DNA of 60,000 bases, taken from positions 18,044,001 to 18,104,000 of the forward strand of contig NC_087250.1 in NCBI RefSeq assembly GCF_037042905.1, in the 5' to 3' direction. Source of the stretch: Lytechinus pictus. Its lineage: Eukaryota. Below, one piece after another: positions 3,060-58,708 of the stretch. Position 1 is the stretch's first letter, and each line of letters starts with the position of its first letter. The translations under genes and the position numbers were made by a program. The notes beneath the pieces are model-generated. The model was given only the letters and a program-made list of their open reading frames with translations. It was not told where the DNA came from and did no database searches.

Positions 3060-3351
3060 TCATGAAATAATGATTTCAGCTTCATTTCTTAACCCAACGG
3101 CCTCTAAAGCAAGTTGAAATTTCTGAACCTGTTCACTAGGTCGGACACGATTTCTCCAGTCTTGAAGCATCTCTTTAAGACCAGATTTTGAAACACTGCT
3201 AGCTGATGAATCTGCCCTGACAAGGTACTTCTCCACCTGTGAGTGGGAGAAACTGAGCTTGTAGCCAAGCTCACGAGCATCCTTTGCTTCATAGACTAAA
3301 TCAGTCAACAGCTCTATCATGTCGTTCGAAACGAACTTCATTCGGCCTCTT
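3060..3351 (-). CDS. Last coding exon: C-terminal death domain 5
   Basis: ARELGYKLSFSHSQVEKY...KEMLQDWRNR...LEAVGLRNEAE then TGA; ttttag acceptor. Confidence 0.85.
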
Positions 3352-6300
3352 CTAAAATAAGAAATGGAAAGAGAGAGAAACAATACTGTTATAGGTTAAA
3401 CTAAATGGAACACATCAACTGATTTCATTAAAGCAACAACATCGTTAAATTCCACGGAAATTTTCACATATCACGAAAATAATGATTTACCGTGTGATTA
3501 AAAAAAAAACTTGACGCCTCAAAATCCCTAATTAATGGAGGAAATATTTCTTGCCTGAAAGAGTGTGTTCTCCCAAAATAATGATACTATAATTATATTG
3601 TATGTCTTCTCGCTTGGATAATCAATGGCTATATTAGTTGCAATGATATAAACTAATTTGCGCCAAAGTAAGGCATGACTGCTATTAATGGATCCAGATG
3701 CCGGTGATGTCAGAATCCTACATGAGTTAGTAAATATATCGGCTAATCCCTTTTCATTGAAATTAACTTGGGAATTGATGCTATAAGGTATTTATTTAAA
3801 GATCCAGACCGGACCAGAAAATGAAATTGATAAATTATATACCAATCGAAAGTTTATAAGCTACTAAATACAGCAAGGTATGCTTTATGCATTCTCACCA
3901 TTTCCCAGCTGAGTATTTTGCTTAAGAATATTCCAATTATCGGGCTTCGAACCCCGCTTAGAAAATAGGCTTTATTGTGCTTTTCACCTGCCTCGAGACC
4001 GTGACGTCACGTTGTGTAAGAAGCGTCGTGATTCCATAGGTTTGTACACAGAAAAACTGGGTGATTTTTTTGCTTTCCAGATAACGCATTTCATTCTCTT
4101 CACTTCTATCACAGAGGGATATCACATATATTTTTACCCACAAGCTTGAATTTATGAAATCTACAGTTTTGAACTATTTTTTGCCATATTTTATTTCCTG
4201 CTTATTTGTGGCAGATTTCAATTCTATCTGTATTTAGAATATGTATAACAACTTTTCCTGACATAGCAATTTAGGCCCAATAAGAGCCAAACAAAGAAAT
4301 AAAAAAAAGGTAGTGAATAGTTGTAGGTTTACAACAATTGAATAGTGAATAATTTTGAGTGCCATTTTCATTTGAAAACGAAAAAAAATGGATTCATAAC
4401 ATGGAAATGGAAGAAAATACCCAATGCTTTTGTACACAAACCTATGGAATCACAACCCTCCCGACACAACGTGACGTCATCATTTCCAGGCGACGTGGGG
4501 GTGCTCAATCGAAGCGTACTTTGGAGGAGCAGTTTCTTTGATTTTTATTTAATATTTTTAACTATTGGAAGGAGATATATGTAATATTTTTGGTATATTT
4601 ATATTGTATGAATCATTACCTTTATTTTGATATATGATTGTTTTTACACCGGTCAGGGTCTTTAACAATTATAATGTTAATTACTATTTAAAAAAATGTG
4701 TGTTGAAATGTATATTAATGCAACCATTGTAGGATTATGACATCACTGGCGTATACATGTAGAGTCATTCAATGCAGTCATACATTACTTTGACGCAAGT
4801 CAATACCTTCTGGTCGTCTAAGCTTTAACTTATAACACACAAATATGGTATCAAATTATTTTGAAGAACTATGGAGAAAGGCCATATATAATAATTTCGT
4901 GATAATGACATACATGTATTTCTTCCTTCAATAAGGGATTTGTGAGATGTCAGGTTTTTTAATTTTACTCACACGGTAGAAGGTAAACATTTTTTTTTAC
5001 ATATATATATAAAAAGATCACACATTATGCAAATGTAAAAAGAGAGCACGCCAACAATCGACAACACATATAAGCACGTGATAAGGGTTCCTGTTGTATG
5101 GTTTGGGAAGACAAAGTCATTTTGGACAAAGTTATTTGTCAAAGGAAATGCCCGGATGGTTACTTAATTGCATTTGTATAAACTCATTCTTGTCATCACA
5201 ACTGGAATGTGTTTTTGATCTGCTTCGTTACATGCATGTCTAAAGCCTAACCAAACATTTTGGAAACTGCACATACGACTCGGGGCTTTAAAAAAGAATA
5301 ATAAAATCAGGGAAGCAAATTGCATGGCATCTGCTTATAATTCTTATCAGTAACTTACGCATTTTCTTCCTAAACCGTTTTCCACAGACGTTTCATCCCT
5401 CATTTAATTGCATGCATAATAATTTACATAGAATGCAATTTTATTGATTGTTTTTAAAGTCATGATAGTTAGAGGATTCATTAGTCCACTATTTATATAC
5501 ATTATATCATTTTATTTTGCGATTTTTATTTTGTTTTAAATTCATCGCATTTTTCCGGATAACCTCAATTATGCAGAAAGAACGACATTTCCTTACCTTT
5601 GATTTTTTTCGTAGTCAGGTTCCACTGTTTAAAGAACAAACAACAAAAGCAACCAAATAGAAATAAACTGTTATAGTTCATGTACTACAGGATTAAAAAA
5701 AAAAGAATTATGACGTTTTTTTTATGAAATGATTCACCAGATGATGTCATATTATTTAACAGTTTTTGTTTGACGTGATATCGGGCAATTTTTTTTAAAC
5801 AAGTGCACACCAAGTTACCGATATTGCACATAGCATTTCTATTTATTTGAAAGAAGGATAAAAGAGCATTGTACATTAAATTCCTTGCTCATGGGCATAG
5901 GTGCCGCGGCCGGGGATCGAACCCCGGACTTTTTATGTATAGCCAGGCGCCTTAGTCCACTCGGCCACGGAAAATGGAATGTAAATCGATACGATTGTTT
6001 GAGTGATTCTGTTTTCAAAGTACAATTGATGGAATTTCTTTCTACTGAATATACATTTATTCATTTTTGACTGGGTGTGTTTTATGTCACCCGTCTTTAT
6101 CAAGGTAAGATGATCTTTCACTTTTCACATACCTTCTCTAGAGATATTAATTTCTTGTTCTGCTATTAATGACGTGCCCTGCTCAATGCAAACACGAACA
6201 CTCTTGTTATCACTAGAGGGCGGTAGATTGACGTGTATAGTATTACAACCTCCGGATAGTAGGGAACGCGGATGAACCTTTAAAAGGAAACAATTGAATC

Positions 6301-9300
6301 TGAGTCATGAATATTCATGAATAGGTTTAGGATAAAACATATAATTTTGATAAAACAACATTCATCATCAAATTTGTTTCGATACAACAAGTTCCAATTG
6401 CCATTCCGGAACATTTTCGGTGAGTGGCGATTTTTTTTTCTTGTTTACTTTCTTTTGTTTAAAGAATGAAACAAGTTTGTCAATGTATGATATTTAAGGA
6501 CAGACAATTCTTGGGTAGATAGATAATCCATTCCACTGTCATGACTGTACTAAAAAGAATCTGACTTTGGTAATTTTCTTATTTGCCACATGAAATCGGA
6601 GAGGAATGACATAAAAAAAAGAAAAAGATATTCAGATGCTTACAGTTTCTCGGGTATTCTCCGAGCCAGAAAGACATGACAGTTTGATGTCATCTTCAGC
6701 AGATTCTAGACGCAATTTGATTACAGTTGTTACTTTGTAGATATGTTCCGATAAGCTGTAATTCTGTCTTACACCCTAGAAAGAAACGTTGTTATAATCT
6801 AAATATCATGTGAATCACTGTTTGGATAAAATGAATGCATTTTCTTTCTCAAGTAAGACGCATACATTGCAGGATGAATCAATATACAGTGCGTATTAAT
6901 AAAACAGTTTACACTTTGAAAAAGTCCAGGGAATAAAAAAAAAATACAATATTGGGATATTTTTTGTCTCACCTGCATAGCAGAGTGAGACTATAGGCGC
7001 TACTTTTTCGACGACGGCGGCGGCGTCAAAAATCAAGTTAGGTTTTTGAAATGACAGCATAACTTAGAAAGTATATGGACCTAGTTCATGAAACCTAAAC
7101 ATACATGTAGGGTTGATCCTTAACATTCTGCCTGAGTTTCAGATAACATGACCAAGGTCAAAGGTCATTTAGGGTCAATGAACCTAGACCATGTTGGGGG
7201 AATCAACATCAAAATCTTAACTAAGGTTAAGTTTTTGAAATTTTGTCATAACTTCGAAAGTATATAAACCTAGTTCATGAAATGTAGCCATAAAAGTAAT
7301 CAAGTATTACCAAACACCCTGCCTGAGTTTTAAGTCACATGACCAAGTTCAAAGGTCAATTAGGGTCAATTAACTTTGACCAGGTTGGGGGTATTTGTTG
7401 AATTACTATCATAACTTTGAAAGTTTAGGAATCTGATTTATATAACTTAGACATAAGACTAATCAAGTATCACTGAAGATCCTGTGCGAGTTTCAGGTCA
7501 CATAATCAAGGTCAAAAGTCATTTAAGGTCAATGAAATTTTGCCAAGTTGGGGGTATTTGCTGAATTACCATCATAACTTCAAAAGTTTATGGATCTGAT
7601 TCATAAAACTGTAAGTGTATTGGTCTAGTTTATAAAACTTGGACATTAGAGTAATCAAGTATCACTTAGCATCTCATGCGAGTTGCAGGTCATATGACTA
7701 AAGTCAAAGGTCATTTAGGTCAATGAACTTTGGTAATTTCGGAGGTAATTATTAGATTGCTGTCATAACTTTCAAAGTCTATAGATACAGTTTATAAAAT
7801 GGGGATAGAGGGGCAATCAAGTATCTCTGACGACAAGTCTTGGGTCGCATGATCAAAGTAAAATGTCATTTATTTTCAATGAACATAGTATTGCATCATT
7901 ATATGAATTGTGTTTTTTGTGAATAATTATGTTATAGTAGTTTACGCAGTAAGCACTGCTGCTATATTGAATCGCGTGATGCAGGTGAGACTGTCAGAGT
8001 CGCTCCACTTGTTATCATATATATTCTTGGGTTTGGGTCTCATTTATCAAATGAAAGTAAACATTTTGGCAGAATGTTACACTTGAGTGAGCACTGTCCA
8101 TTTTTGTAAAGCTCGCAGGAATCAGTTTGTGCAGAAATGCTAATTTTCACGTTGTGTCAAGGAAAAAAAGCTAAAAGAAACTGACCATGCGGTACATTTT
8201 TGCATTTTAGCAAATCTCACATTTAAACATTCTTAGCAACTTTGCCAACCAAAATAATATTTTTTTTCATAGGTAAGAACAATCTTTCCCTTTTTTGCTA
8301 GCTGGATCTGAGGATATAACTGAATGGAAACAAAAAATATATATATATATTTCAGATATCTCCATCATTATTTTACTAAGTTTTTATCATTTAAAGTGGG
8401 ACAGCATTTCATATTTCATTTAATACTTGTTTCTCCACACTTTTCCCGAGATTGACAATGATTAACAAAACGAAAATCAAGCCTAAGCCATTTCAGGTGA
8501 ATCACAGCTCCCTGTATCAAAAGCAGATATCACCATGATGGCTTCGGTGTGTGGCGAGGAGAGGGGAGCACAATTGCGCTATATGAAGTGTTTTGGGCAA
8601 CGAAACAAGTTAAAGGTAAAATATCTTTAAATTAATCTTCCTAGCTAAAGTCCATGTGTTTTTCATGACTAACGTCTACTTTTCTTCACATCAATTTTTC
8701 CAAGCTCTACACATATCATTTATACAAACTTATAAAAAGTAAGTGGTGCTCGCTCAAGCGATGTTTAAATGTGGAAAGAGCCTCAGGATATAACATATGA
8801 TTTTACAGGATTATGTTTAAGTGCGAACTTTTTTTGTATACACACTATGCAAATACACCCACAATAGTTTTCTCTTTTCCCCCTTTTTTTTTTATATGTT
8901 TACATGTTCAGGTTATCCTATGAAGTAATACATTTTCATGCATCGAACGGAACTCTTGACAATCAACCTAGCACCTGTACATACTGTAGAGTCATTGTTG
9001 TAAGGATGTGCGATGCAGATTCGCAGAGTTGGGTGTAAGGAGTTGCTGATGAAAAGAGGCTGTGATACTTCACAGATGAATTGAACTCCATGGATGTCGT
9101 TTGAAGACAAAGCGAAGTATTCAAGATGACGTGTTGAGAAGCTAATCTTGTCTTCTGAGATCTCAAAATCTCTTGTCGATTCAGGAAGCAAAGTCTTGTA
9201 CCCATATTCTCCTAGAATATGCAACAACAGACAAGAAAGTAGTTTGTGTTAGAAACAAGTTACCGAGTTGACAGCACCATAAAGTAATGTAAAAGTTTTA

Positions 9301-12300
9301 TATCTTCCCTATATTATACATTAGGAGTCATGCATTACTTTAACCCTAAATAGACCGGGGGGGGGGGGCTGATTCATCCCTTCTCGACATTTTTGGGGGT
9401 AAATCCGCCGCGATAATTATTTTGGCCGCGTCGCTATCTGGCTTTTTACTTTTTAAGTCTTGCGCAACTTTTGAGACCAAAATTGCGACCCAAGTGGTTG
9501 TGAAATTACGCAATAGTGTTTTAAGTCAAAATTAGAATCAATCAACTTCATCTTGTTTATGGTCAAAATAATGTCCCCGAAAGCAGGGGCGTCGATCCAT
9601 TTTTCAGATTGGGGGGGGGGGGGCAAATCATAAAGTGAATCAACGTTCCATAGGCGCTCGATCACACAAAACAAACAAACCGACACACACATACATAGGC
9701 CTATATATATATATATATATGTGACTCATGAGAAAGAGACACATATCTTACCAACAAATTAATGCGAGCGCGAAGCGCGAGCTGAAATTTTGTAACACAC
9801 TGACCTGAAAACCGGAAAAGGTGACCTGTTTAGGACTGTTGGTAGTTAACTCGTGAGGAGGATACATATCTAACTACACAGATAAAGCGAGTGCCGAGAG
9901 CGAGCTAAATTGTATTTTGACCTGAAAGCTTGATATTCTAAGCATTTTTGGTACCAATGATTAAGATCGGTATCTAAAACAACAATAGATGCGGGCGCGA
10001 AGAGCGAGCCGAAAATTATGATATTTTGATCTGAAAAAAAATTGAGTTAAATGGACGTTGTTAATAAAGAACAAGATATATATCCAGCAGAATATTATTG
10101 CAAATCGAAGCGGAAGTTCTTTTGATGTTTGGAACTGAAAACGGGACATTCTTTTCACCTATTAATCATGAAAAGTATGGGTTCTTACTACCGAAATGAT
10201 GCGAGCGTGAAGCGCGAGCTGAAAATTTTGATATTCCGATCTGAAAAAGCGGACATTTTGAGCACGATTATAAACGAGAGAAAGAACGAGTTTTGTATCT
10301 CAATCTCGCTAGCTGATTTCTGTGTAACATTACAATTTTATTTTATTTTTGCACATGCGGAATTATTGGGGGGGGGGGGGCAAAACGATATGTTCCCCCA
10401 ATATTTTCATTGGTGAGGCGATCGCCCCCCTCCCCCCCCCCCCAGGATCGACGCCTCTGCTCGAAAGTTTTCATTAAAAAAAAACAATTTTAAAAAAGTA
10501 GAAAACAACGATATCCATGAGAAATTTAGAAAGCAATAAAGTACATAAGAAAATAAATGTGATGTTGAATTTTTAAAGTACAGATAAATAGATTTATGGA
10601 TTCCTATAATGAGTCTTCATAGCAAAAATAAGCATTTTATGGACATTATTTAGATTATTTGACCAAACTTTTGTTTTTACGTATAAATTAGTGTAATTCA
10701 TGTGCAGTGAGATTTTTCACAGAATTTAATTTCAGTTTGAAGATTATGCCGTGGGTAAAGCGCGTGGCAATATTATGGTAGCGATTGCACGATCGACGGC
10801 CGAGATCATCTTCTCAGGCGTCGAAATAAATGAAGCCCAGTCTATTTAGGGTTAAGTTATCTATTTCCTCATAACATGAAGCATTACTACCTTTTCTGTT
10901 TTATATCTGGTGTACAGAAAAAGGTGACTGGGTATGACATAAATAAAGTTACATATCAAAACCCCCAAATCAGACAAATGAGCACACAAGAGAACCCATT
11001 TCTATTTGAATATCCTACATTACCTGGTCCTATTTTGCTATAAAGCTTCACACGCATTAAGTCTTTCTTCTTCTGCTGGTATCGATATGGAGCAATGTAG
11101 TGTGGAAGCGCTACAGTGGCAGGTTTGAGAAGATGATGGTTACAGGAACATTGGATGATTGGTGTTAGGAGAATTTCGCCAGAACCCAGGGGGAAGTCAG
11201 ATGTACCCACATTGAGGACAGTGAGAGTGAGAAGTGATTTCATTCCTTTGGGGATCGCTCCTGAAGGAATGGATACCCGGATATCAGGTTCGTCTAAGTT
11301 CAGGTCTCCACCATCATGATCAATGATGCCATGTGTGAAATGATCCAAGAAACCTGGGTGGTTTGGTATTGCTGTTATTGTGAAGTAGAACATGTCGGGT
11401 CAGCAAGCAGATATGCAGATATTGCGGATTTTTCAAGAGCCGATTTTTGAATGTGTTACATTTTGATTAAAACTAAAAATAACGTGATTGAGATAAAATG
11501 AGACATCAATCAATATGCTGTCTCTTAATTGAATTACAATAGTCTTGTAATTACATGTGGCACTTTCCCTAACCGTAAAATGTCCATTCAAGAAATAAAC
11601 ATGGATGAAGACAAATGTTGCATTTGATTTCGACATGTTCGAATTCTATAGTTGAATGCAAAGGTATGAATAACAAACAAAAAATATTGTGCGTCTTTGC
11701 TACAAGAAGTATACTTATGATTTTTAAAATACACTTTTGATTTTGATATTTTCGTCCCATGACTGCTTAAACCTACCTCGGGCTATGTGATCTGCAGCAT
11801 CGTTGAAATTAAAAGCTTGAACCATTTCAAGCAACCTCAGCCTTGTTCCTCCTTGCTTGGCCCATTTCTGAAGCATTTGTAGTACCATCCGACGTATCGA
11901 GGCAGGTTGAAAGGTCAAAGATGAAGCCATCACCTGAAGAATTTCAGAAGCTGGCAGATCCAACCTTTGAGAGAGGTCGATGAGGTCTGGAGTTGTCCGG
12001 ATTTTGGCACAGATTTCACCAATACCTTTTTATAGGGAACATAATGACATTGCAAGTTCATAGTGAATGACGACTCCTGTTTCCATTTTGCCGAAATACA
12101 CAGTTTTACCATTAGATTAAAAAAATATACATTTTGGCTAGTTTTCTATTCCATCAAATTTTCTACAAAACGTGTTAAAAGCAATACCAAAAGCGAGTTT
12201 AATAAAATTCAAGCTGTGATCATACCTGTTTGAGCGTCTTCGATGTTGTATCCTTGAAGAAGCGCAGACACCTTCTCTTCCTTCTCCTGTCTTTCTAGAC

Positions 12301-15300
12301 GTCTACACCATTGATGAAAGAGTCTCCATGCTAGTCTCTCCATTAATGCAGGATCGCGAGGAGCAATGAGAACTATGATGTCATTAACGTCCAAACGAAG
12401 AGCTTTAGCTAGGTCTAAGGCCAACGTGACATTCGCCACCGGACGAACGACGCTACACAGTTCTGAATTACTAGGTGAACCTCCATACCCGTCGATGTCG
12501 CCAATAGTTTCATCTTTGTCTACGATTTAATAGTATATGGAGGTTGAATGCTATTAGAAATGTTAATAAAGATAACCTTGTAAAAGACCTGCTAGTACTT
12601 CAATGGTAAAGCGTGGTCCGATTTTTTCTTTTATACATAGATATTTCCAATCCCTTGGTTTTTATTAAAAAACGCGTCAGAATTACTAGGTGAACCTCCA
12701 TACCCGTCGATGTCGACAATAAATTCATATTTGTCTACGATTTAATAATATATGGTTGGGTGAATGTTAAAGTCCGGTCTGTTAGCGTCAAAAACACCCT
12801 ACTTGTGGACACAGTGGACAAAAGCATGATTTTTTCTCCAGACCTTTGTTTATGTATAAGAATTAAAAATGGGGTATGCTCCAAAAAATCTGGCTGCAGG
12901 AACAGTGAAAAAATGGGTGAAAATGTCAGAATTTATGAGTTTAGATTGGTCTGATATATAGACTAGCGCTAGTGCAAAACTCAATAGCAGTGCATTAGTT
13001 TGCATTGGTTTAGTTCTTGAATTCAGACCCTTTTTGAACAGATATTCTGTTTGCCCTCACATCTCAATGCACTAAATATCTGAATGCAGATGCTAAACAA
13101 GCCGAAGGGTGGTGATGGAGGGGGTTGAATGTTGGTGTGTATGTACATATTTTGGTCTTGGGGTAAAGATGTGCAAGACACATTTTTTTGCATGTGTTGG
13201 AAATTGTGTTGCCATGGTAACAGTGTATTATGGCAAAAATAAGGTACAAATCTTGCAGTTAGAACTACTTCCTCTGTTGTCACCCGATTCTCATGAAATT
13301 TGGCACACACATTGGTCTTGAGGTGAAGATGTCTAAGACACATTTTGTGTGTCTTTCGGAAATTTTGTTGCCATGGTAACGACATAACATTTGGTGAAAA
13401 TTGGGGAAAAAACCTTACAATTCAAACTGCTTCATCAGTTTTAAATCAATTCTCATGAAATTTTGCACACACATTGGTATTAAAGTAAAGATGTACAAGG
13501 CACTTTTTGTGATTGTTTCAGAAATTATGTTGCCATGGTAACAACATATTATATGGCAAAATTTAGGTAAAAACCTTGCAATTTGAACTACTTCATCAGT
13601 TTCAAACCAATTCTCATGCATGATATGGCTCACACATTGGCCTTGAGATAAAGATGTGCAAGAACCTTTTTTTTTTTCATTTGTCAGAGAGTGCATTGCC
13701 TTGATAACCACATATAGCCAGAAATGCAGGGAAAACTCATCAATTGTGGATCAATCTACTTCTCAGTTTTCAGCCTGTGCTCAGAAAAGTTTACACAAAT
13801 ATTCATTTTGGGTAAAGATTCACATTCAGTGTTAAAGGGGAATCCAGCCTTGGTCATAAAATGTTGTGTGGAAAAGGAGAAAAATAAGAATGGTGAAAGT
13901 TTGAAAGCAATCGGACAAGCAAAATAAAGTTATGGCTGCTTTAAAATTAAGATCCCTAAGGCTACTAGTATGTAGATTTCAAATTGATAATGGGTAAGTA
14001 AATTATGACAAGGGGTGAGGCCGCAAGGACAACTTTCCCATTGGCCTTGTACTTTGATTTTTGGTTTTCACCTAAATTTCATTGGGGCCGTAATATAAAC
14101 CTGTTAGTATAATGCTTTATGTCCTCATGAAAGAAAGATACAATTTGAAGTAAAACTTTTGAAAAAGACATTTTAGTCAATTAATTATTTCTGTACATGG
14201 AAGAGTGGTCCTTCCCTTACATCATTATGACATCACATGTGCGGCCAATTTGAAGTCTTCATGGGTATATAGTGATTACCAATGTTTACAACTTTTATAT
14301 ATTCACAACTTTCTTATGGTTTGTCCGATATTGTTCAAACTTTGACCTATTGTCTGATTTTTTCTTTTCCTCATAAAAACAAGTGTTTATCTGGTTTGGA
14401 TTCCCCTTTAACATCATAAAATAGCGCAGGGTATTCATGGTATTAATCACCTTCAATAATATTTATAGGTTCTTTTTTTGGGGGGGGGGGCGGAGGAGGT
14501 CCTTAAAAACTGACAACATAAAAATATAGAAGGTTAAAGGACATGGCCATTAGGAACTTAAACACTTTTAAAGAAAGCGACCCTTCCATTTTTTTTTTTT
14601 TTTTTTTTTTGGTTTGGGGGGGGGGGGGGGCCTTTAGAAAATTGCCACATAAAGAGTAAAATGAAATAATTACAACTAGGAACTGACCCCCCCCCCCCAA
14701 AAAAAAAAAAAAAAAAAAAAGGGGGAAGAAAAATCCTTTACACTTCAGCGTATTAATTTAAAGCCTAAAACATTCTGGTTTGATAAAAGATCATTTCCGG
14801 TGCCCAATTAATCAACGTTTTATTTATCTCCTTCTACTCAGTCTTTGTTCATTTCAGTGTTTACTCTGACTTTCTTACATCACTTTTTGCACTTTTTGCA
14901 CTTTAGAGCTTTACCATACCTTCTTGTTTTGTTTCCTCCCCCCCCCCCTCTTTTTCTCCCTCTCTAAGTACATTTTTTTTTGCTATTTTAATTCATTATT
15001 ATCTAGCAACAATTATTCCATTTTGAATGCTTACACCTACACTGAAATATAATACCATGACATTTATTCTTTTCTTCATAATCTTCTAAACTCTATTTTG
15101 GCTACACTCTGTCCTAAATAATACTATTAGCTATATTTAATGTCTAGTTTAAAGAATTGAAGAAATGGCTGTCATGATATTATATTTCGGTAAAGGTGCA
15201 TCAAATTCATAGTTGCAGCATTCAGAATGGAATAACTGTTGCTTGAAAAAAAATGGATTTAGTTGTTTTCCGAAAATCCTCTGTGAAAATTTTAGTTATA

Positions 15301-18300: not shown

Positions 18301-21300
18301 ATTTTATTAAATTATGCTGTAAAAAAGGATCGTGTAAATGAACCTTTTTATTTAAAAACTCTAGTTTAGTAGTCGATTTCAGTTCACTAACGTATTAAAA
18401 TGCGTTACTGAACTGAAATCGACTTCTGAACTAGAACTTGCCGCCACATTTATCGTTTTGTGTGTATTTCCTTTTCGTTAAATAATTTTAAATACCATTC
18501 ATGTCCATCACGTTTGAAGCCTCATTTAAAGATTCCCAGACCATCTTCAGTTTTTCATCCGGTTTATCTGATGATATTTGAGATGCTTTCCACATCGAGA
18601 GCATTTGAATGTTAGCATCCTTCCTATTGTACAGGGAACGATGCTCGATGTGCTGTAACTCTAAATCGTCAAATCCCAGTTGCTTGCCAATCTCATAGAA
18701 TTTCTCTTTGTTAATGCGACGGGAAAATTGTAATAGCGTGCAGTCAGGAATCTCTCTGTATTATTGGATTGAAATCATGAAATTCACTATCAGTAATTGT
18801 TACCATCATGACATGCATTAACTTTATAATAAACACAATTTTAAGAAAACTGACAAGTTTGCGTTATTTTAATTTAAAAGGCAAATTAAAATTTTAACTA
18901 ATTTACATTAATCTTCAGTGTTTTTAGTAAAGCAAAATAGTCACACATTCCATTTATGAAGTTGCTGCTTTTTTCATTTGTCTACACTAAAACGTACTGC
19001 ATACTAAAGAAACTTACTCAGTTGGGTCAATATCTTGATGGACGTAGCCGAATCCGAGATGAGAGCAATGTTAAGAGAAGAGAAAAATAAATTTATGAAA
19101 GAAAAATTACTAATAAACTTAATTATTAGTATGCTGCCTAGATGTTAGCAAGTATGTCGTTCCTCATGCAAACCTATACGATCTTAAGTTACAAACGAGA
19201 TAAAGAATTTTGGCATGTAATTCTACAAGAGTAACGGTAGTACCACTTGAGAAAAATTGCCAAAAACCCGTACTGTCGATTTTCCTTACAATATTTTACA
19301 AACAAAAATGCAGTTACACCATGAATCTAGAAGCATTTTTCTGAAACTAGTAAAACACAATTATTACTCACCCCTTTACGGACGATGAAAAACTAGACTA
19401 AATCCAATAGTTTAATCCACATGCGAAAATAAAGGATAACGCTACTCAATTTGCATGTTATTATCAACTATTTTTTGTGATAATGGGAAAATAAATTAAT
19501 GCTTGCAAAATATATGTACTGTTATTGGAAGAAATTGTCAGATATCCGTACTCTCCATTTTATAGCAATATTTCCGATTTCTTACAAACGAAGATGCAGT
19601 TACATCATGCAGCTGAAAGTAATTATTCTGAAACTAGTAACACAAATAATGTTTATCAATCTCTTTAGATACGACAGGTATTATAAAAAAAAGACTGAAA
19701 CCAAAGTAAAATCAACAAACACTAACTCAAACCTGGGAAAGTTGTATCATTTGAAGATGAGTTGAATGATTCTATAATTGTGATGAGGGTATTCTTTGCT
19801 GCTTGGGTAGATGCTTGTCTCCCTCTCCATGCCAGTAGCATGTCATAGGTAGCTTTCTGCCTATCTCGGAATCTCCTGTACTCTACCCGATCCAACTCGG
19901 CTATGGTGAAACCAAGAGCTATGCCCATATCATAGAACTGATTTACGTCCATTGTCTGGGCTATTGTTAGAAAGTCTACGTCCGATTGTAGGTCACTGTT
20001 CTTTACTTCTTGGAGTGTCCTAGAAGATGGATTGAAATAAAAAGGCAAGGCTGAAATATCAAAGAACTGTACAGTTGTTCAATATCAATGAATCTATATT
20101 ACTACATATTAAAACAGTTTCCCTATATATCACATAAAAAATTATACATCCATGGCGTGGCAATGTAATTTTAAAAGCCTTCGTTGAAACGTTGCCGTTG
20201 TGAGAACTTGACTGATAGTTCACGATCATAATTATTATTGATATCTTCATCCGTCCTATCGAGTCAAGAAGCATATTACGTGAAATGAAATCAATCTTTA
20301 TATCTGTTTTCTAAACAAACATCTGAGCTTCCTCAAAAAAGAAGAGAAAGGAAAAACATGTTATCCGATGGAAACTTACCTAGTGAAGTCTGTCTGTTCG
20401 GAGAGAAATTGGCACAGAGGTCCATCTAACACAGAGAGAAAATGAAGAGTCATAAAACAAGCATTCCACTGTGTTTTCTGTTTACAATGATAATACTTTA
20501 TTTCATAATTTAGAAATTACCTTCGGCATTAACAGATCATATAAACTATGCTTATGCTGTCTGCGATAGTGTCAATGGATGAATATGTACACCTTGTAAT
20601 GATGATTGGTTTAATACCGTTCATTTAGTTCATGGAGCTGAGTGACATGGTGGGTAATTCTTGAATCCATCGCCTTATCCAAGGCTTTGGTGATTAAAAT
20701 AAGAAATATTTTATCATTGCATTATCAAACATGAAATTCTACCTGTATATCTGATGACAAAGGCAATAGATCGTGAAATCCCAAGCTTCCCAGCCTGTGT
20801 AATTGTTATGGTAATCACTGCAAAGTTTAGATCGCCTTCACTGGGTGGAACGTATATCGATATACATTGGCTTATCTTGGCTAGAAGGTCCCTAAGAGAA
20901 ACGATCTGTTGGGAAAAATCCAGCAGCAGAATAGAAATGCATAAACCACCAAGAGGCTGTGCCGTTTGGGCAGGCTTTGATCCATCATAAAAAAAAGGTA
21001 TTATTTAAACCGGGGGGGGGGGGGGTACTAGCCAGGAGGCTCCTATAGAGTAAAAATCATTTACTAACGTATATATGCTTACTCTCCACGGAGCCAGGAA
21101 TTCCATCCCATTCATGTACGTGTACCGCCCAAAAACAGAAACTTTCGCGAGATTTTTCCCGAGATTTTGACCTTCCTTCTAAAAGAACTAGCCCTAAATT
21201 ATGTAAGTGGGATATAACTTCATTTCCGACATTCCTACGCTATCGATTTCATTTTTAAACAAGAATTCATTTTAAAAACGAGAAAAATATTATGAAAAGA

Positions 21301-24300
21301 CGGCGGGAAACTTGACACTGCAATCTTGTTTCTCATTGTTCTTTGCCAACGTTACGGACGCATGCGTCCGTAACGTTATTTTAATGAATTCTTGTCTAAA
21401 CATGAAATGTTTTACTTTAACTTATAGGTAAATATCATTGTACATGCCTCAATTTATTTTGTCTGTATAAGTTCATTGTGATTATTTCGCCACATTACTT
21501 TGTTCTGTTGAAAATGAAATAAATTGAAATTGAATTGAAATCGATACCGTAGAAATGTCGGAAATAAAGTTGTATCCCATTTAAATGATTTAGGGCTAGA
21601 TCTTTTAGAAGGAAAGTAGAAATCTCGGGGGCGAAAGTTTCTGGTTTTTTGGCGGTACGTGCAGATGAATGGGGAGGAATCCCTGGCTCCGTGGAAAGTA
21701 AGCATACGTTAGTAAATGATTTTTACTCTCTAGGAGCCCCCTGGCGAGGGGATACTTAGATTTGGTTAGGACGGGGGTGTGCGGCTGAAGGTTTAAAACC
21801 CATACCCATATTTACGAGTCATTTCGGCTAAAAGTGTACCCTTTATTTAAGGGATTTTAATAAAATTTGACAAGCAAAAAATAATAAATAAAAGAAGTTA
21901 TCACCCAAATTTGGAGGAGAATATGGACCCATGTTTAAGGCCAGTATCTAAAAATTGGGGCCATGTTTAGGGAATTTCCAGCATAAAACCATACCGCATG
22001 TTTAGAGATTTTTTTTTTCCAAAAAAGCGACCCGTATGCCTTATTTTGTGAGTACTTTAAATCGCTTTGGGATTAGTTTCATGCTAACAAGGAGCCTGAT
22101 TGCTAAGAGCACCTTATTTGTTTTATGGTTATCAAATAAGTTCTGAAGCTTAATTACCTGGCTCTCAATTTCTCCTCCTTCACGATGGCACGTGATTGTG
22201 ACGTCACCAGCCTTTGTTTCAACATTGAAAGGGACCGAGCGATGACATCTATGGTAAGATTGTTGTCTCGACTTCTCTTGTGTTGCCTAAAAAGATTATA
22301 ACGATTATATTTAATTTCAATTATTGAAAAATGAGAAAAAATATCAAAATTCATATTTTATAATTCTAACTAGAAATCTGGAGTACAGAAACTCCGAAGA
22401 CTAATTTTGCCTGCCCAATTAATCTTCGGCGCGGCAGCGCTATATATTTGTCTGACGCGGCCGGAGCTCCCGACTTCCCACCGGTTGTGAATCGGACTCT
22501 CTACCAGCTTTATAGCCAACACAACCGTTGAAATGATTGATATTGTGTATTAATGTTATTATCAACATGCAATTACAGATGTGAAAAGTTTACTTTTCTT
22601 GATGAATGTGTAAAAAATCCTGATTTTTATTTACAACGGTGCTAATATCTTTAAGCAGAATTATCTATAATAATTTTGATGATAAGAGCAATACTGATTA
22701 TGACAGTGATAATTATATTAAGATTGATAATGACAATAATAATAAAAATAATAATACTATCAATGATAGTGAAATGGTTCAGAGCGCTTCAAATCATTAC
22801 GTCAACCAATAGCATTCAAGTAATTTTGTTCTACCCGCAAACATTCACCTAGCTCATCTGGCTGGAGGGTGGAAAATTTTCAATCAACAATTTCTCAAAT
22901 GATAAAGATCTTCGGGTTTTCAGAGCTGTTTTTTTTTGGCGAATGAATTATAATTCTGAACTTATATGGAGCGACGATGTTTAATACTGACCGCTTCGTT
23001 TCCAGGTAGGTCGTTACACAACTGAAGATTAACTGCAAGCTCTTTTCCTCTTTCGATCCTGTATGGGACGTATGGAGTACAAATAAGTTGCTGTCGGATC
23101 ACCTGTTGTTCAAGAGGAATCAGAACCCACCACTCCGCACAGTGGCCAATGTACAACTCAAGATGTTTCTTGTACAGTCTGCAGTATGGTGGTTTGTCTG
23201 GTGAGCTGGATGACTGCTTCCTTAGAGTTTTCGGTAGATCTTGTTTTACCAATGCCGAAAAGAGAAAAGATCAATGGAATGAATTTTATCACGACTTTCA
23301 GAAAGTCACAATGGTTATTAACTGTATAATTATCAGAAACGGTATTATTAGTGACATAATTAGCTGCTGAAGGAAGCTAATGTATTGAATGAAGACATTG
23401 CGGTGTTGATTTTTTTTTTATAACAAACATGTGTACACGTTGGTATCAATAATGCACAAAGCATTTTCATTCATCTGTGTTTTGGAAACATTTTACATAC
23501 CTTTATTTGGAATATATTTTACATACATTTAATTGTTTGGTTTAAAATTGATACTTGTTGTAATTATATACATTCTTTCTAGCACAAAGCTCAAAGAAGG
23601 GAGGATGTTACAATATCTGCATGTTTATGAGATTTGAGGAGCATGTAATGATCCTACCAAAAGAGGGCGCTACAAACCTTTAGTACTTATAAAATGCTTC
23701 TCTCTCGACTATACAGAAGCTGTGTTATTCTGTTTGACTCTGACTCATAATATAACTTGAAACATGATGGCAGCGGTGAAAAGTTACATATTTCCGTAGA
23801 ACAGTTATTGTTCTTCTCTCTGAACTCTATTATGCATCTGCAAACTGTGTTTTGACCTGGATTTCGCCAGCTTTCTGAGAGTCATTCCTGCATGTGTCCC
23901 ACATATGTAAGTCGGTGTACTGTTTTCTACATTCAGTATAGCTGCTATTAGTATTGGTGTGAATTACCATTCTGACTTACTGTTACTACTGTTGATTGCA
24001 TGATGACTGATAATCATAGTGATGGGTCTCCTTCCGAGCTTCCACATGGAGCTACTTTTGCTAAGCCTTCCATTCAACCCCTGGGCATTTTAATGCGTCT
24101 GCTGGGCATAATGTCGCAGAGGAGTGGAAAATGTGGAGCCAGCAATGGGAAAATTACTCTATTCTCACAAATCTCTCTCAACAACCTGATCGTTATCAGA
24201 CTGCCCTTCTCCTTCACAGTGTTGGACCGGAATGTCTTCGCGTCTACAATGGCATGAAATTTGCTACTGAGGCTGATAGCATCAAATGTTCTGTGATTAT

Positions 24301-27300
24301 ATGGACAAGTTTAACACACATTTCCTTGGGGAGAGCAGGGAATTCTTTGAGAGATTTAAATTCAACCAGCGCAATCAAGAGAGTGGTGAATCCATTGAGC
24401 AGTATGTCACGGTTCTTCTTATGATGAGCAAAACGTGTGGATTCTGTGACTTTATAAAAGACAAGCTGCTTGTTGATCGTGTCCTACTCGGTGTGCGTGA
24501 TGATCGAATGAGAGAACTACTCATTTCGAGATCTGACCTTGACCTCACGACTGCTATAGACGTGTGTAAAGCTGTAGAGGCTACTTCTGTCCAAATGAAA
24601 GCTCTGAGTCAAAAGAATGAAGACATACATAAAGTTGGACAGAGACATTTCCCAAAGTCTGGAAGAAAAAGAATAGCGCATAGAAACCAAAAGGGAAAGA
24701 TCTACAGAAAGGTAAATCAGAGGTTAAGAAGTTCAAGTTCTGTAACAGGGTTCATGAGATGAAAAAAGAGTCCTGTCCAGCATGGGGACAAAAGTGCAAA
24801 GCTTGCAGTAAGCCTAATCACTTCAAGGGATCTTCAGTGTGCAAGACGAGGAATGTTCACCATGTCGGAGATGATGACTACTCATCCTCAGCTGAAAGCA
24901 TTAGTTTTGTGCAAATTAATGCAGTGGATATGGACAAAGAGCCAATTATCTGTAACATGCTTATCAACAATCAGAGGGTACCGTTCCAACTGGACTCAGG
25001 TGCAACAGTGAATCTTCTTCCACAAAAGTATCTAAAAGAGGAGGATGTAGTTCAGAGTGCAAACATCCGTCTATCTATGTGGAACAAAGCTATAACTCAT
25101 GCTATTGGCAAGTGTAAGGTGATAACCAGAAATCCTGCTACTGGCAAGAAATACAAAGTTGAATAAATTGTAGTAAAGGAAGATCTACCTCCACTGTTAA
25201 GCAAAACAGCAGGGGAAAAGATGCAGCTCATTACTGTTCATTATGATTCCCTTGAGCTAGTACGCAGCATAGTTCCTGAGGACATTGCTGAGATAATTCC
25301 TGACAAGCATCCTGATGTGTTCTCGTCTTCTTCAATTGGCACTCTGCCTGGAAGTCCTGTTGATCTGACGGTTACGGATGATGCAATGCCTACTGTTTGC
25401 CCAGCTAGAATCATCCATGAATCCTTGAAAGGCAATATAAAGGATGCACTTGATGATCTTCAGGCAAAAGACATCATCGAAGAAGTCAGCTCTCCAACTG
25501 ATTGGGTAAATCAGATGGCTGTGGTGCAGAACAAATCTGGTAAAGTACGTGTTTGTCTAGACCCCAGACCTCTCAAGAGGGAGCACTATCCCTTACCTGT
25601 CTTAGATGATATTCTACCTCAGCTTTTCAGATGCTACAGTCTTTTCAATCTGTGACTTGAAAGACGGATACCTTCACTGCCAGTTAGATGAAGAGTCTAG
25701 TTTACTGACGACTTTTGCCCCACCCTTGGGAAGGTACAGATGGAAACGTCTTCCATTTGGTTTGAAAGTCAGCAGTGAAATCTTCCAAAAGAGGCTTCAC
25801 CAAGCACTTGATGGTCTTTCTGGAGTCCGCTGTGTGGCCGATGACATCATCATCTGGGGCAACAGTGACGCTGAGCATGATGCCCGACTGCATTGTCTAC
25901 TGAAGAGATGTCAAGCTGTTGGCATTGTGTTGAACAAGGAGAAATGCCAGTTCCGACTGAAAGAAATCTCATTCCTTGGCCACATAGTATCCAACTCTGT
26001 AATCAAACCTGATCCATCAAAGATCGAAGCTATCCTGAACATGAGCGATCCTTCCTGCAAAGATGACATCCATCGTTTGCGTGGGATGGTAAACTACCTA
26101 TCCAGATACCTACCTAAGTTATCAGATGTGATGAAACCTCTCAATGACTTGACGCATAACAACTCAGCGTGGACTTGGGACTCCAACCACGACAAAGCTT
26201 TCAAGCTGTTGAAAGAGATGCTAGTGCAAGCACCTGTGTTGGCCTTCTACGATCATAGCAAACTGCTAGAAATTCAGACTGATGCCAGCTCCACAGGCGT
26301 GGGTGCGGTTATGCTACAAGATGGTAGACCGATAGCCTATGCTAGCAGAATGCAGAGTGATGCTGAATCCAGACACTCTGTCACTGAGAAAGAAATGCTT
26401 GGTATAGTATTTGCACTGGAGAAATGGAATCAATACACCTATGGCCGTGAAATAACTGTGTTCACTGACCACAAACCTCTTGAAACCATCTGCAAGAAAC
26501 ACCTGGATAGAGCTCCAAAGCGTCTGCAAGGGTTACTGCTACGAGCTCTTGCATATGACATACAAGTGAGATATCTCAAGGGCAAGGAAAACGTTCTGGC
26601 TGATGTTCTTAGCCGTGCTTCTCTTCCCTATGAGAGTGGACAACATGATCTAGAAGTGGTGAATGATGTTAACCACTTGGCACTCCCTGATGACAAGATA
26701 GCAGAGATAAAAAGACAGACTGCCAATGATCCTACTCTCTGCCAACTCAAAGACACCATTCTTGAAGGGTAGCCAGACCACAAGTCACAACTTCCTCAGT
26801 CACTCACCCCGTACTTTGGTTTCAGAGATGACCTTTCTGTCAGTGATGATCTAATCTTCAAGGGTGAACGGCTTGTAGTCCCAAAACAAGTCAGGCACAA
26901 AATGAAAGAGGAGTTACATCGTGGTCTCAATGGTGTCGAGTCAACTTTGAGGAGAGCTCGTGATCATCTCTACTGGCCGGGCATGAGTAACGAAATCAAG
27001 GAATTTATTCAAACATGTGCCACATGCCGAGAAAGCTCTATCTCACAGCCTGCCCAGCCTCTGATGTCGCACCAGATTATTGACAGACCATGGGCCAAGA
27101 GAGGACTTGATCTTTTCCATCATAGTAATGACACATATCTTATCATGGTCTGTTATTACTTAAACTTCTTTGAGATGGAAAAACTACAGAGGACAACTGC
27201 CCCTGCAGTCATCAAGAAACTGAAACACCAGTTTGGGAGATATGGAGTACCTGAAATCATCGTATCTGACAATGGTCCCCCTTTCTCCTCTAACGAATTT

Positions 27301-30300
27301 GCTGAATTTGCCAAAAAGCTTGGAGTTAAGCATAATACCATCTCTCCATACAACAGCAAAGCTAATGGCAAAGCAGAGTCTGCTGTCAAGACTGCAAAAA
27401 GAGTACTTACAAGATGCAATGATACTGGAGATGATGTTGATCTAGCCTTACTCAACATTCGCAACACCCCTACACAAGGTATCCAGAGTAGTCCAGTCCA
27501 GAGATTAATGGGTCGTCGGACTCGTACTCTCCTCCCCACTTCGACTCGGTTGCTTGCACCTGATCGCAACCCACAGGCTGATCTTGAGAGACTGAAAGAA
27601 AGCCAGAAACGTCAAGCAAAGTATTTCAACAGAGATACAAGAAAGTTGAAAGATCTCTCACTAGGAGCAATAGGAGGAGTCAAGCCATTCAACAATGACA
27701 AGAAGTGGAAGAAAGCAGTTATCCTTAAGAAACTGGATGACCGTTCCTATGAAGTTCGCTGTGAGGGCCAGGTTCTCAGAAGGAACAGAGAACACCTCAG
27801 AGCCACATCTGAACCACAAGATGTACATGACACTGGTCCTGCTCTTTACAACTGGAGACGTTCTGATGGTAATCCTCAACCTGATGTACCAACTACTGAG
27901 CGCCATACTTCCCACACCAGGACCCAGATATCACAGACCGCGGATATCAACAGTCCGGAGAAGTCGCGTGATGCAAACTTGAATACCTCAGAAATGGAAC
28001 CAACCAACCCAGCTTCCCTGAGACGATCTAGACGTCAGCGACGCGAACCGCTTAAGATGAGGGATTTTGTTACGTTTTGAACATTTAAACCGAAGAAGGA
28101 AAGAAAGTGAATGCTGAAATAAACAAACTGAACGCTAACATTTCTTAAACATTTTTTTTTTGCTTTAACTCAAGCAAATTTTGAAGTCAGAACTGAACCA
28201 ACAACCAACTCATCTATCAAATCGTTTATTTGGACTTATTTTTATTTTGTGAAATCAACCTGGACAATTTAACCTGGACTTTAAAATCATTTTGTTTGCA
28301 ACTGGAAGAACTGTTTTGAACTCAATTATTATTTTTTTTGCAAGTATTATAATTGTGCAACTACAAAAAATGTGAAAGTCTCATAAACTGGTTTTTTGGA
28401 CATATATTTTGGAAACATTTTACATACATTTAATTGTTTGGTTTAAAATTGATACTTTTTGTAATTATATACATTCTTTCTAGCACAAAGCTCAAAGAAG
28501 GGAGGATGTTACAATATCTGCATGTTTATGAGATTTGAGGAGCATGTAATGATCTTGCCAAAAGAGGGCGCTACAAACCTTTAGTACTTATTAAATGCTT
28601 CTCTCTCGACTATACAGAAGCTGTGTTATTCTGTTTGACTCTGACTCATAATATAACTTGAAACAATTTGATGCAAGATAAAAGAGAAATGCATAGAAAT
28701 ACGCCTCGGTCAATGAAGGGCCGTGCCGGGAATCGAACCCCGAACTTTCAATGTGTAGTCGGGCGGCTTAGACCACTCGGCCACGACACCACGCCGTTAA
28801 TAGTGAGAATGATTACGATCGATGCGACTTGTAATAACTTATTGTAATGATGATCTTAAAAATGTCAAATTTGATATTTTTTAAGTAGCATCAAGGTCAT
28901 TTTAAGAAAGAAAAAAAAGCCCCTATGCTTTACTGTTACCAATGATACGTTTATTGTCTTACTGCAATATCAGTCTTCATAGACTTACCCTTGATTGAGT
29001 CCCACACACGACAAACGATGTCTGGTTTCACCTGCTCTGGATTGACGACCAAAGAAGAGTGTGGTATAGTGATCTTAACAGGCTGGTTGAAGATCAAAGG
29101 TTGAGGGTCACACTTGATCCCATAACAGGCCATTGATTCTCCTTCAGTGATATCGACACCAGGATTGTCTCTTAGGATGGTTAGGGTGATCTGACAAGAA
29201 ACATCAGGTGGAACCGCTCCAGGAGGAAGGTACATTGATATTCCAAGGTCTTCTAGATTGATTTCCTGACTAGAATTTCTGTTGACTTTGACCGAGGCAT
29301 CAGAAGAGTTGGATAGCCGATCTGTGATACAAGGTGAACAACAAAGGTCATGGTACGAACAATATAGAAGAACAAAACTGTATTTTAGGCAATGAAATAG
29401 AACAATTAACAAACATTTTCACAATATACATGATCGATGTATAGGCCTATCAAAAGATGATATAAGCCTTGTGTTTTGATCTCGGCTATTCAAATTCAGT
29501 TCAAAATGGTTTATTTTTGGAATAAAAGAATCAATCGAGACATAAAGACGAATGACAAAAGTTTTGACAATTGTAGGTTAAAATCAATGAGGCAAGGCAT
29601 ATCGTACAGTATCACCAAACACAAAAGCACCAGTTATCACATAGCATAAGATGAACGATTACAGAACACTGACCATACGACAAGACGTCAGCGAACACAA
29701 TCAAGGAAAATAGCATTAAAAAATCTGCTAATATATAAACTACAAAGTTTTAGAATCAATATGATTCACAAGTATTCAGATATATGCAAAAAAATCAATG
29801 CTAAAATCAGAATATTGATTTCCAGATCTTAAAAAAGTATTAAGAATGGGAATGAATGGGAAGGTGACGCGAAAGGTGAAGTTAATAGGAATACGGGAAA
29901 TGAATAAGGGAAAATGTATTGAGAGATTTAATATAAAAGTACATAGGAGGTAAAGTATTATGAGAAATGTTAGGAAGAATAACGAGAGCGAAACGAAGAA
30001 TAAGAACAAAAAGAGAGGAAGTGGAAGGGCAAGAAGAATCAAAGATGGAAGAACATTACTATATTAAACGAGAGGAAACAGGTAATTGAATGAAAAGACG
30101 GAAAAATTGAAATACAAAGTTAATATACATATAGTGGGAATATAGGTACAAACCACTTGTTCCTAATTTTAATACCCCAGGTAAAAAAACCAGTTGAAAC
30201 CAGTTGAAATTTTAACTGGTTTCAACTGGAGTCAACTGGTACCAGTTGAAACCAATTGGCACAACTGGTAAACTCCCACCATGCCAGTATATTCCAGTTG

Positions 30301-54385: not shown

Positions 54386-54414
54386 ACCGGCCAGAAGAAA
54401 TTGGTAAGAATTTT

Positions 54415-56370: not shown

Positions 56371-56552
56371 GTTTGAAATAGGATCTCTATCAATTTGCAA
56401 AAAACTACTTCACCCAAATGAGGTCAAATGTACATGTACATTAGTATTTACACATATATATATTTACAAACATCTGCATTAAAGAAATAACTCCATTGTT
56501 ATTGTCTTGAGTTTTTTTGTTTCTTAGTTTCTAATCAATATACCCATGTGAC

Positions 56553-58299: not shown

Positions 58300-58667
58300 T
58301 GCTCCTAAAATCTTTAGACTCATGCACACCCGCCTTCACCTCAAACTACTAAGACAACTCAGAACCTACTTTAACTCTTTGTTTTGGCTCCTTCGTACAA
58401 ACTCATCACTGGGATCCTATAAACATTGAATCTGGTATACCCCTCTTCTTCATCGCCCGGCCCACTCCTTAGCCAAAGCCATACTGCTTCTTCCCTTCAG
58501 CCCGATATTCCTCTTGCAATCTTCTCAAAATGAATACTGCTTGATTATCCGTCGTACCTTTCCCTGGCATAAAACCAAAGCGCATCTCTTCCACTTCCAC
58601 CTTTCTCCAAATTGTCTTGGACCCTTTCCACAATTATTCATTGCATGTTCGAATAACTTCACACTCC

Positions 58668-58669
<2 letters not shown>
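58300..58669 (-). mobile_element. Degraded RTE-clade LINE RT fragment
   Basis: YRSVKLFEHAM, FGFMPGKGTTD, FILRRLQEEY and LYEGAKT motifs with frameshifts. Confidence 0.7.

Positions 58670-58708
<39 letters not shown>
58670..58708 (+). repeat. (TAA)13 microsatellite
   Basis: Read directly. Confidence 0.97.

Follow-up and report, generated by a model that had tools for sequence, protein, structure and literature searches.

A sea-urchin gene model that joins a homogenised ankyrin array to two ZU5-UPA cassettes without a self-cleavage serine and to five predicted death domains

The 60,000-nt stretch analysed here, from Lytechinus pictus, a sea urchin (contig NC_087250.1, 18,044,001 to 18,104,000; hereafter the window, in whose own coordinates all positions are given) is AT-rich, with short minus-strand exons interspersed with transposons. 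By reading the minus strand we rebuilt from these exons a single gene that spans 41 kb, from 43815 to 3060, with 21 coding exons (7,014 nt). Three small exons (35, 16 and 129 nt) complete the frame, the introns are GT-AG without exception, and the 2,337 amino acid (aa) product has a single terminal stop. Its domain order is about 30 ankyrin (ANK) repeats, ZU5, UPA, two death domains (DD1 and DD2), an acidic linker, two further death domains (DD3 and DD4), ZU5, UPA and a last death domain (DD5). The model is 78% identical to the L. variegatus protein of LOC121417600 (P0168) over 1,454 columns with 5 gap openings. A real spliced gene with this architecture is almost certain. A previous examination of the letters alone (the sequence-only reading) had proposed an ankyrin part with two ZU5-UPA-DD modules and extra death domains, and the gene model, Pfam, profile comparisons and models of homologues all bear it out.

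The ankyrin part (43815-39437) lies outside the interval 3060-29321 to which that reading referred. Exon 1 (40504-43815, 3312 nt from the likely ATG; this and all other exons are on the minus strand) encodes about 30 near-identical 33-aa repeats and degenerate capping repeats, identified by Tandem Repeats Finder (TRF) and by PDB matches to ankyrins and DARPins; from the sequence, 43815 is the likely start codon. It is followed by an ankyrin cap exon (39894-40076, 183 nt, phase 0-0), located by tblastn of P0009, P0019 and P0020, and by the last ankyrin exon (39437-39594, 158 nt, 0-2), 57-70% identical to homologues. A putative linker exon of 35 nt (38520-38554, 2-1), with equal-length counterparts in P0168, P0014 and P0009, joins this part to the first ZU5.

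Module A begins with the N-terminal part of ZU5 (28989-29321, 333 nt, 1-1; Pfam ZU5 E 9e-13), and its second exon (22992-23239, 248 nt, 1-0), recovered as a piece of the contig described below, holds the ZU5 C-terminal part, with H-C-A for H-F-S in the motif alignment, and the start of UPA. Then come two UPA exons (22158-22286, 129 nt, 0-0, and 20743-20905, 163 nt, 0-1; 86% and 84% to P0005) and a linker (20380-20425, 46 nt, 1-2), the lengths of all three agreeing with the contig offsets, and DD1 (19733-20019, 287 nt, 2-1; Pfam Death 22.2 bits; contig piece). DD2 (18496-18755, 260 nt, 2-1; Pfam Death 23.7 bits; contig piece) is a tandem paralogue of DD1 (profile probability 99.4%). It starts at 18755 in phase 2 and so requires a 16-nt micro-exon (19018-19033, 1-2), which corresponds to a 16-nt contig gap between record 1259 and 1276 and encodes the same residues as in P0005 and P0168. 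The N-terminal block ends with an acidic, probably disordered linker exon (17778-17906, 129 nt, 1-1), which fills a 129-nt contig gap and has a predicted local distance difference test score (pLDDT) below 50 in homologue models.

The C-terminal block begins with DD3 (12226-12519, 294 nt, 1-1) and DD4 (11777-12025, 249 nt, 1-1; Pfam Death 20.5 bits, below cut-off), both present as contig pieces. Module B follows with the ZU5 N-terminal part (11024-11371, 348 nt, 1-1; Pfam ZU5 E 3e-14; contig pieces) and, joined to it in a second contig, the ZU5 C-terminal part, with H-L-E for H-F-S, and UPA start (8985-9211, 227 nt, 1-0). Two UPA exons (6644-6775, 132 nt, 0-0, and 6133-6277, 145 nt, 0-1; 54-71% and 69-77% to Lytechinus models), a linker (5597-5624, 28 nt, 1-2; same residues in P0001 and P0168) and DD5 with the stop codon (3060-3351, 292 nt, phase 2-stop; Pfam Death 26.4 bits, 69-74% to Lytechinus models) complete the gene. 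The sizes and phases of all twelve cassette exons came out equal to those in the sequence-only reading (12/12); to its exon list the rebuilt model adds the 16-nt micro-exon with the phase-2 start of DD2, the acidic 129-nt exon, the 35-nt linker and, beyond its coordinates, the ankyrin exons. Three candidates were discarded during the rebuilding: a GAG acceptor at 18753 for DD2, for which homologues and contig indicate the micro-exon; an open stretch at about 21240-21083 with a good donor, which is one arm of an inverted repeat; and a 20-nt exon near 37530, whose phases do not match.

Four sequencing runs were compared with positions 3250-23249, that is, 20 kb of the 41-kb gene. For contig X1 record 1 (3,348 nt), the RNA nature of which is presumed (among the runs listed, none that carries the gene is recorded as RNA), six pieces are listed. 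They fall on module A exon 2, DD1, DD2, DD3, DD4 and the ZU5 of module B (ZU5-B), and all six fit the offsets of the model with 0-1 mismatches each. When the record is anchored on its first piece, the other five fall at the predicted offsets; the unlisted exons between the pieces therefore total exactly 129+163+46, 16 and 129 nt, and modules A and B lie on one spliced molecule. The 385 nt ahead of the first piece would suit the ZU5 exon of module A, the linker and the closing stretch of the ankyrin exon (arithmetic only), and the ANK-ZU5 joint and the last four exons are predicted by homology. Raw reads on exon bins are mostly in the orientation expected for minus-strand RNA. Contig X4 record 4 joins DD3, DD4, ZU5-B and the next exon and then continues into the intron.

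This last contig does not stop at the module B exon 2 donor but reads on as far as 8902 (8902-8985, minus strand), beyond an in-frame stop, and the RefSeq models P0003, P0004, P0006, P0007 and P0014 end in the same way. The read-through could be a short form without the second UPA and DD5, or unspliced RNA.

The identity of the domains was examined by Pfam, by profile comparisons and by structure models. Pfam recognises ZU5 in the first exon of both modules and Death in four of the five helical exons, two of them above the curated cut-off; it gives no UPA match in the window exons or in the family's full-length members, and the UPA assignment comes from structure and profile comparison. DD3 gave no Pfam match, no PDB sequence match and no useful Atlas match (best 0.83). 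Its profile probability to DD4 is 87% (to DD1 or DD2 <1%), and in the homologue models it is a bundle of 5-6 helices; together with the Pfam matches of the other four exons, this upholds the count of five death folds made earlier. The structures folded were those of homologues and not of the window's own protein, namely P0021 (about 42% to near homologues) and P0023 (86% to P0005). Both models contain pairs of beta-sandwiches and helical bundles in the expected order, with five helical death folds. The ZU5-UPA units match best the UNC5B supramodule (module B: Z 21.2, 269 residues, root-mean-square deviation 3.2; module A: Z 19.4, 251 residues), which for both ranks ahead of ankyrin-B (second-best), NLRP1 and CARD8. 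The helical exons match death domains: DD2 those of the PIDDosome and RIPK1 (Z 8.6-9.7), DD5 that of TNFR1 (Z 9.1) and the DD3-DD4 region that of FADD (Z 11.1). Values of 8-11 in these models are moderate for helical bundles and consistent with the sequence evidence. The matches to the DD3-DD4 region extend over both domains (about 522-693, with 75-96 residues aligned), so they do not place the fold on DD3 by itself.

In the P0023 model, solved death domains align across DD3 and DD4 jointly (residues 522-693, equivalent to 11777-12519 in the window). The model may have exchanged helices between DD3 and DD4, or stray ends entered the alignment.

Modules A and B share a common ancestry. Their ZU5-UPA regions are 23.8% identical over 261 aa (E 5e-10), with a profile-profile probability of 99.3% (95% for UPA against UPA), and their introns fall at matching alignment columns in the same phase series, as had been noted before. 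Using typical phase frequencies, the chance of six matching phases is about 0.002.

PIDD1 cleaves itself at HF/S after each ZU5, and the serine is required (PMC3210808 and PMC9162469, in part). The corresponding positions here are H-C-A in module A and H-L-E in module B. In an alignment of 80 modules, with 4 misaligned set aside, none of 44 family rows (Diadema included) has Ser, Thr or Cys at the nucleophile position; H-F-S/T/C is present in 30 of 32 other ZU5 rows, S. purpuratus P0175 among them. The self-cleavage serine has been lost in both cassettes and retained in the nearest relatives of each. Since both ZU5s are devoid of it, neither module should self-cleave, as judged from the motif.

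The other conspicuous component of the protein is the ankyrin array. TRF finds 29.6 copies of a 99-bp unit with 87% matches, all in one exon. Mean identity over all pairs of 26 repeats is 85% in nucleotides and 72% in amino acids; highly conserved repeats, by an exact criterion (over 85% identity across at least 100 aa) that differs from this measure, are just 0.8% of metazoan ANK, TPR and WD repeats (PMC4986451, in part). A way to see where the repeats differ is to dissect them codon by codon. Across 29 repeats the nonsynonymous proportion of differences (pN) is 0.36 at six binding-face codons (hairpin and first helix) and 0.084 elsewhere, with a synonymous proportion (pS) of 0.127, so that pN/pS on the binding face is about 2.8; in subsamples pN there is 2-3.5 times pS. 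The positions randomised in a published ankyrin library (PMC4308713, in part) give a ratio of 2.9 and rank 13 among 1,107,568 six-position sets. By a tree-based count the nonsynonymous to synonymous rate ratio (omega) is 2.8 or 4.2 for surface positions and, for the remainder, 0.84 or 0.76. In the paralogues the repeat consensus is common to all and the surface is likewise more variable, with mean repeat identity from 43% to 73%. Amino-acid changes are in excess on the binding face of the array.

The gene belongs to a multi-copy family of camarodont urchins. The full or nearly full layout was found in L. variegatus P0168 and P0021 (LOC121405948) and in L. pictus P0020 (LOC135157855) and P0022 (LOC135155399), as well as in P0019, and S. 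purpuratus models such as LOC115922503 (P0009) span it as overlapping fragments. On one 47.8-Mb chromosome-scale contig there are at least five L. variegatus models with the module-B ZU5, under neighbouring locus numbers. The nine-domain order is retained at 40-80% identity across Lytechinus paralogues and Strongylocentrotus; array length and sequence vary between copies. Searched with a profile, 1.84 billion representatives yielded 66 matches at E up to 1e-30. Names were looked up for 30 of 150 listed matches or earlier proteins, a sample and not a census; among these 30, the double-cassette proteins are all from Lytechinus or Strongylocentrotus, and single-cassette relatives come from Diadema, Amphiura and Acanthaster. 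Related cassettes are also present in an urchin NLR (P0178) and beside many death domains (P0132). RefSeq labels the family 'uncharacterized' or, automatically, 'Netrin receptor UNC5' or 'ankyrin-3-like', in keeping with the earlier reading, which recognised no named gene with this layout. We found no paper describing the family or the double-cassette, five-DD, non-cleaving layout in a survey judged mostly from abstracts, with supplements excluded. Lineage-specific mixing of such domains has been described for marine invertebrates (PMC8195603, in part), and the available portion of PMC10855541 makes no mention of ZU5. The component domains and the theme of a repeat sensor with death domains are already known.

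In four family models, P0013, P0026, P0037 and P0046, blocks recur or have been exchanged: DD2-DD3 or ZU5-A occurs twice, or an HFS-type ZU5 comes after the family domains. These are either ongoing shuffling or annotation artefacts.

How the two cassettes came together can be approached through relatives that have one. Diadema P0050 and P0174 are ANK-ZU5-UPA-DD-DD proteins with an acidic tail, collinear with the N-terminal block, and S. purpuratus P0175 has a DD-DD-ZU5-UPA-DD block collinear with DD3-DD5 over 583 aa (24%, E 1e-41), preceded by ankyrin repeats of another type and retaining HFS. Trees were built from 51 ZU5-UPA modules (29 of 80 were omitted, 4 as misaligned and the rest as partial, redundant or without full UPA). 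The mixture-model tree omitted 4 further long branches, and P0037 and P0046, whose family domains are followed by a different, HFS-type ZU5, were left out of the trees. Module A groups with Diadema (99; 100/99) and module B with P0175 (99; 100/100). A clade of A and B, the hypothesis named beforehand, is rejected by the approximately unbiased (AU) test (p 0.00012); adding Diadema gives p 0.04, for a grouping named after the tree was seen. In the mixture-model tree A is grouped with ten HFS-type single-cassette proteins (96/93), with long branches in play, and B again with P0175.

With the A/B clade rejected and the two halves collinear with different single-cassette proteins, a fusion that brought two older blocks together is likelier than duplication in place, and we consider it probable from these comparisons. 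An older ANK-ZU5-UPA-DD-DD gene would have taken up the DD-DD-ZU5-UPA-DD block of another gene via phase-1 introns; the module borders are all in phase 1, which makes the six-exon cassette portable. The fusion point would be the phase-1 intron that separates the acidic exon from DD3, used after an ancient cassette duplication, and DD2 and the DD3/DD4 pair probably came from small tandem duplications. The sequence-only claim that the gene was built by cassette duplication thus survives as deep homology and fails as an in-place sister duplication. The rival, that the second cassette is a duplication inside the gene and that the single-cassette relatives were later split or shortened, seems to us rather unlikely. 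It would account for the matching phases and intron positions of A and B. A clade of A, Diadema, B and P0175 (also a post hoc grouping) is not rejected (p 0.49), making an old in-gene duplication followed by splitting possible, and this weighs against the fusion; the Diadema and P0175 models are, moreover, predictions that could be truncated or mis-joined, and the newer P0058 is without the ANK part. Against a duplication inside the gene stand the AU rejections of A with B, with and without Diadema, the separate placements of A and B under the mixture model, and P0175, which keeps HFS and matches the entire DD3-DD5 block.

In the intron proposed as the fusion point, the first 90 bp at the DD3 acceptor occur a second time (90%) immediately upstream (12462-12766), next to a pair of 1-kb inverted repeats (93%) that extends over most of this intron (12804-17544). 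The arrangement resembles the insertion of a transposon with copying of part of the exon.

The closest solved structure for both modules, the ZU5-UPA-DD supramodule of UNC5B (PDB 3g5b), has a single ZU5 ahead of UPA as here. The sea-urchin protein differs from UNC5B in having two modules, three extra death domains and an ankyrin array, and in having neither a transmembrane segment nor an Ig/TSP ectodomain: its highest 19-residue hydropathy mean (1.42) is located inside an ankyrin repeat, with no transmembrane helix found, and Pfam finds no Ig or TSP1 domain in the homologues. PIDD1, to which the sequence-only reading had likened the protein as a PIDDosome-like scaffold, also combines a repeat domain, ZU5, UPA and a C-terminal death domain in one chain, and DD2 resembles a PIDDosome death domain in fold (Z 9.7). 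However, PIDD1 has leucine-rich repeats (LRR) where the sea-urchin protein has ankyrin (no Pfam LRR in full-length homologues), two adjacent ZU5s before UPA-DD where here they are far apart and each directly before its own UPA and DD, and an HF/S nucleophile that both ZU5s here are without, so that it is not a PIDD, UNC5B being the closest solved structure; as an analogy, a repeat sensor with death-domain output, the comparison may hold. Canonical ankyrins (ANK1-3, UNC-44) share the order of ANK repeats preceding ZU5-UPA-DD; they consist of 24 distinct repeats and ZU5-ZU5-UPA-DD, and echinoderms keep one single-copy canonical ankyrin (PMC5135030, in part), whereas here about 30 homogenised repeats in one exon precede modules with a single ZU5 each, in a multi-copy family. 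NLRP1 and CARD8 share the ZU5-UPA fold (their FIIND; Z 13-16) before a death-fold domain, a CARD, but self-cleave at SF/S, while the sea-urchin family is without the serine and ends in a death domain. Certain fungal NLRs have near-identical ANK, TPR or WD repeats with diversifying change on the concave face, linked to signalling domains (PMC4986451, in part). The likeness to the array described here is one of analogy, not homology: those proteins carry a NACHT/NB-ARC switch, and ours animal death-domain outputs. With all 21 exons accounted for, no NACHT or NB-ARC was found, and Pfam NACHT appeared among the relatives in P0178 only.

A broken Ty3/Gypsy long terminal repeat (LTR) retrotransposon (23506-28665, plus strand; LTRs 23506-23764 and 28408-28665, 97.7%) sits in the intron that separates module A exon 1 from exon 2; its reverse transcriptase (RT), RNase H and integrase are in separate frames and are not part of the protein. 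A second Gypsy-type element lies upstream of the gene (51881-56409, minus strand; gag with SCAN and zinc knuckle, RT, RNase H, integrase), and a reverse transcriptase frame, probably a non-LTR element, runs off the window end (58545-59999, plus strand). Other repeats in the introns, at 21031-21745, 30665-31481, 37834-38275 and 34477-35545, are an element with inverted repeats, two minisatellites of 161 and 40/80 bp, and a tandem duplication of 530 bp (98%). Antisense inside the ANK-ZU5 intron (32960-34000, plus strand) there is a GC-rich, promoter-like patch with what we take to be NRF1-like, octamer and CCAAT-like words, a short ATG exon, a strong donor at 33254 and a second exon at about 33822-34000, without Pfam match; a transposon or a nested gene may have its 5' end here.

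What does the protein do? Array variability, folds and loss of the cleavage serine are computed; ligand, partners and outcome are inferred. By analogy, the protein may be a variable, non-cleaving intracellular sensor that feeds death-domain signalling, a reading for which we see the case as evenly balanced. It would be a single cytosolic protein of about 2,340 aa with a long ankyrin array, ZU5-UPA-DD-DD, an acidic spacer and DD-DD-ZU5-UPA-DD, in which the array would present a variable surface for recognising non-self or damaged-self proteins inside the cell. In UNC5B and ankyrin-B, UPA and the death domain are folded back on ZU5, keeping the death domain shut (PMC9162469 section 7, in part). 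Borrowing this closed state, binding or clustering would open the ZU5-UPA-DD units without self-cleavage, and the freed death domains would seed homotypic assembly with urchin adaptors or kinases, leading to NF-kB-type or caspase signalling. Overall this would be a repeat-sensor immune receptor without an NTPase switch.

Several observations count against the sensor. Ankyrin repeats in general vary most at binding-face positions, and the six-codon set, which is the DARPin set, was chosen after the column entropies were known. Gene conversion between repeats can inflate the surface omega, for which the figures are uncorrected for recombination, and a framework omega near 0.8 means weak constraint overall. 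None of the listed RNA pieces falls on the ankyrin exon, the ANK-ZU5 joint or the last four exons, raw-read depth on exon bins is about 1 or less (6% of two presumed RNA runs were read), and many database models of the family are fragments. DD5 is not co-aligned with ZU5-UPA on UNC5B in the homologue model, and the closed state is therefore not seen there. Scaffolds that have no part in cell death, ankyrins among them, carry death domains as well.

The alternative that fares best is an ankyrin-like structural adaptor whose array binds membrane or cytoskeletal proteins and whose ZU5-UPA-DD units dock, with no role in immunity or death. The ANK plus ZU5-UPA-DD order is that of ankyrins, ankyrin-B ranks second among the structural matches and non-cleaving ZU5s suit a scaffold; we nevertheless think it unlikely, given that echinoderms keep a single canonical ankyrin (PMC5135030, in part) and that this family is multi-copy, with differing copies, no ZU5-ZU5 tandem and repeats homogenised in one exon with a variable face. 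Mostly neutral churn, in which repeat homogenisation and relaxed constraint in an unstable tandem family mimic selection while many copies decay, would fit the low read depth, the framework omega, the many truncated models and the transposons in introns. We find it quite doubtful in view of the open 21-exon frame, the precise splicing, the conserved nine-domain order and the surface pN, which exceeds pS in the subsamples. A decoy or brake, whose many death domains would absorb adaptors and damp signalling, as UNC5CL/ZUD does, until the array is engaged, would suit five death domains, two uncleavable ZU5-UPA units and a nucleophile lost from HFS-bearing relatives, but a variable ligand face is easier to explain in an activating sensor, and we hold it improbable.

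Sea urchins are a main model of innate immunity without antibodies and have expanded TLR, NLR and SRCR families; the numerous 'ankyrin-like' gene models of these animals usually receive little attention. If the protein is a scaffold or the product of neutral churn, the gain is a well-defined annotation fix. In either event the gene offers a clear case of a reused six-exon, phase-1 signalling cassette, and the loss of the serine with respect to HFS-bearing relatives makes the role of ZU5 self-cleavage directly testable. Should it be a sensor, it would add a system of intracellular recognition whose surface changes fast and whose signalling unit works without nucleotide hydrolysis or self-cleavage. 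Tentatively, camarodont urchins may possess an undescribed class of variable intracellular immune receptors, in which natural DARPin-like arrays, reshuffled and with a diversified binding face, are wired, without NTPase or self-cleavage, to five death domains, the whole having been put together by shuffling of a portable phase-1 ZU5-UPA-DD cassette of which urchin NLRs make use too; if so, the family would be a further recognition family beside the TLR, NLR and SRCR expansions.

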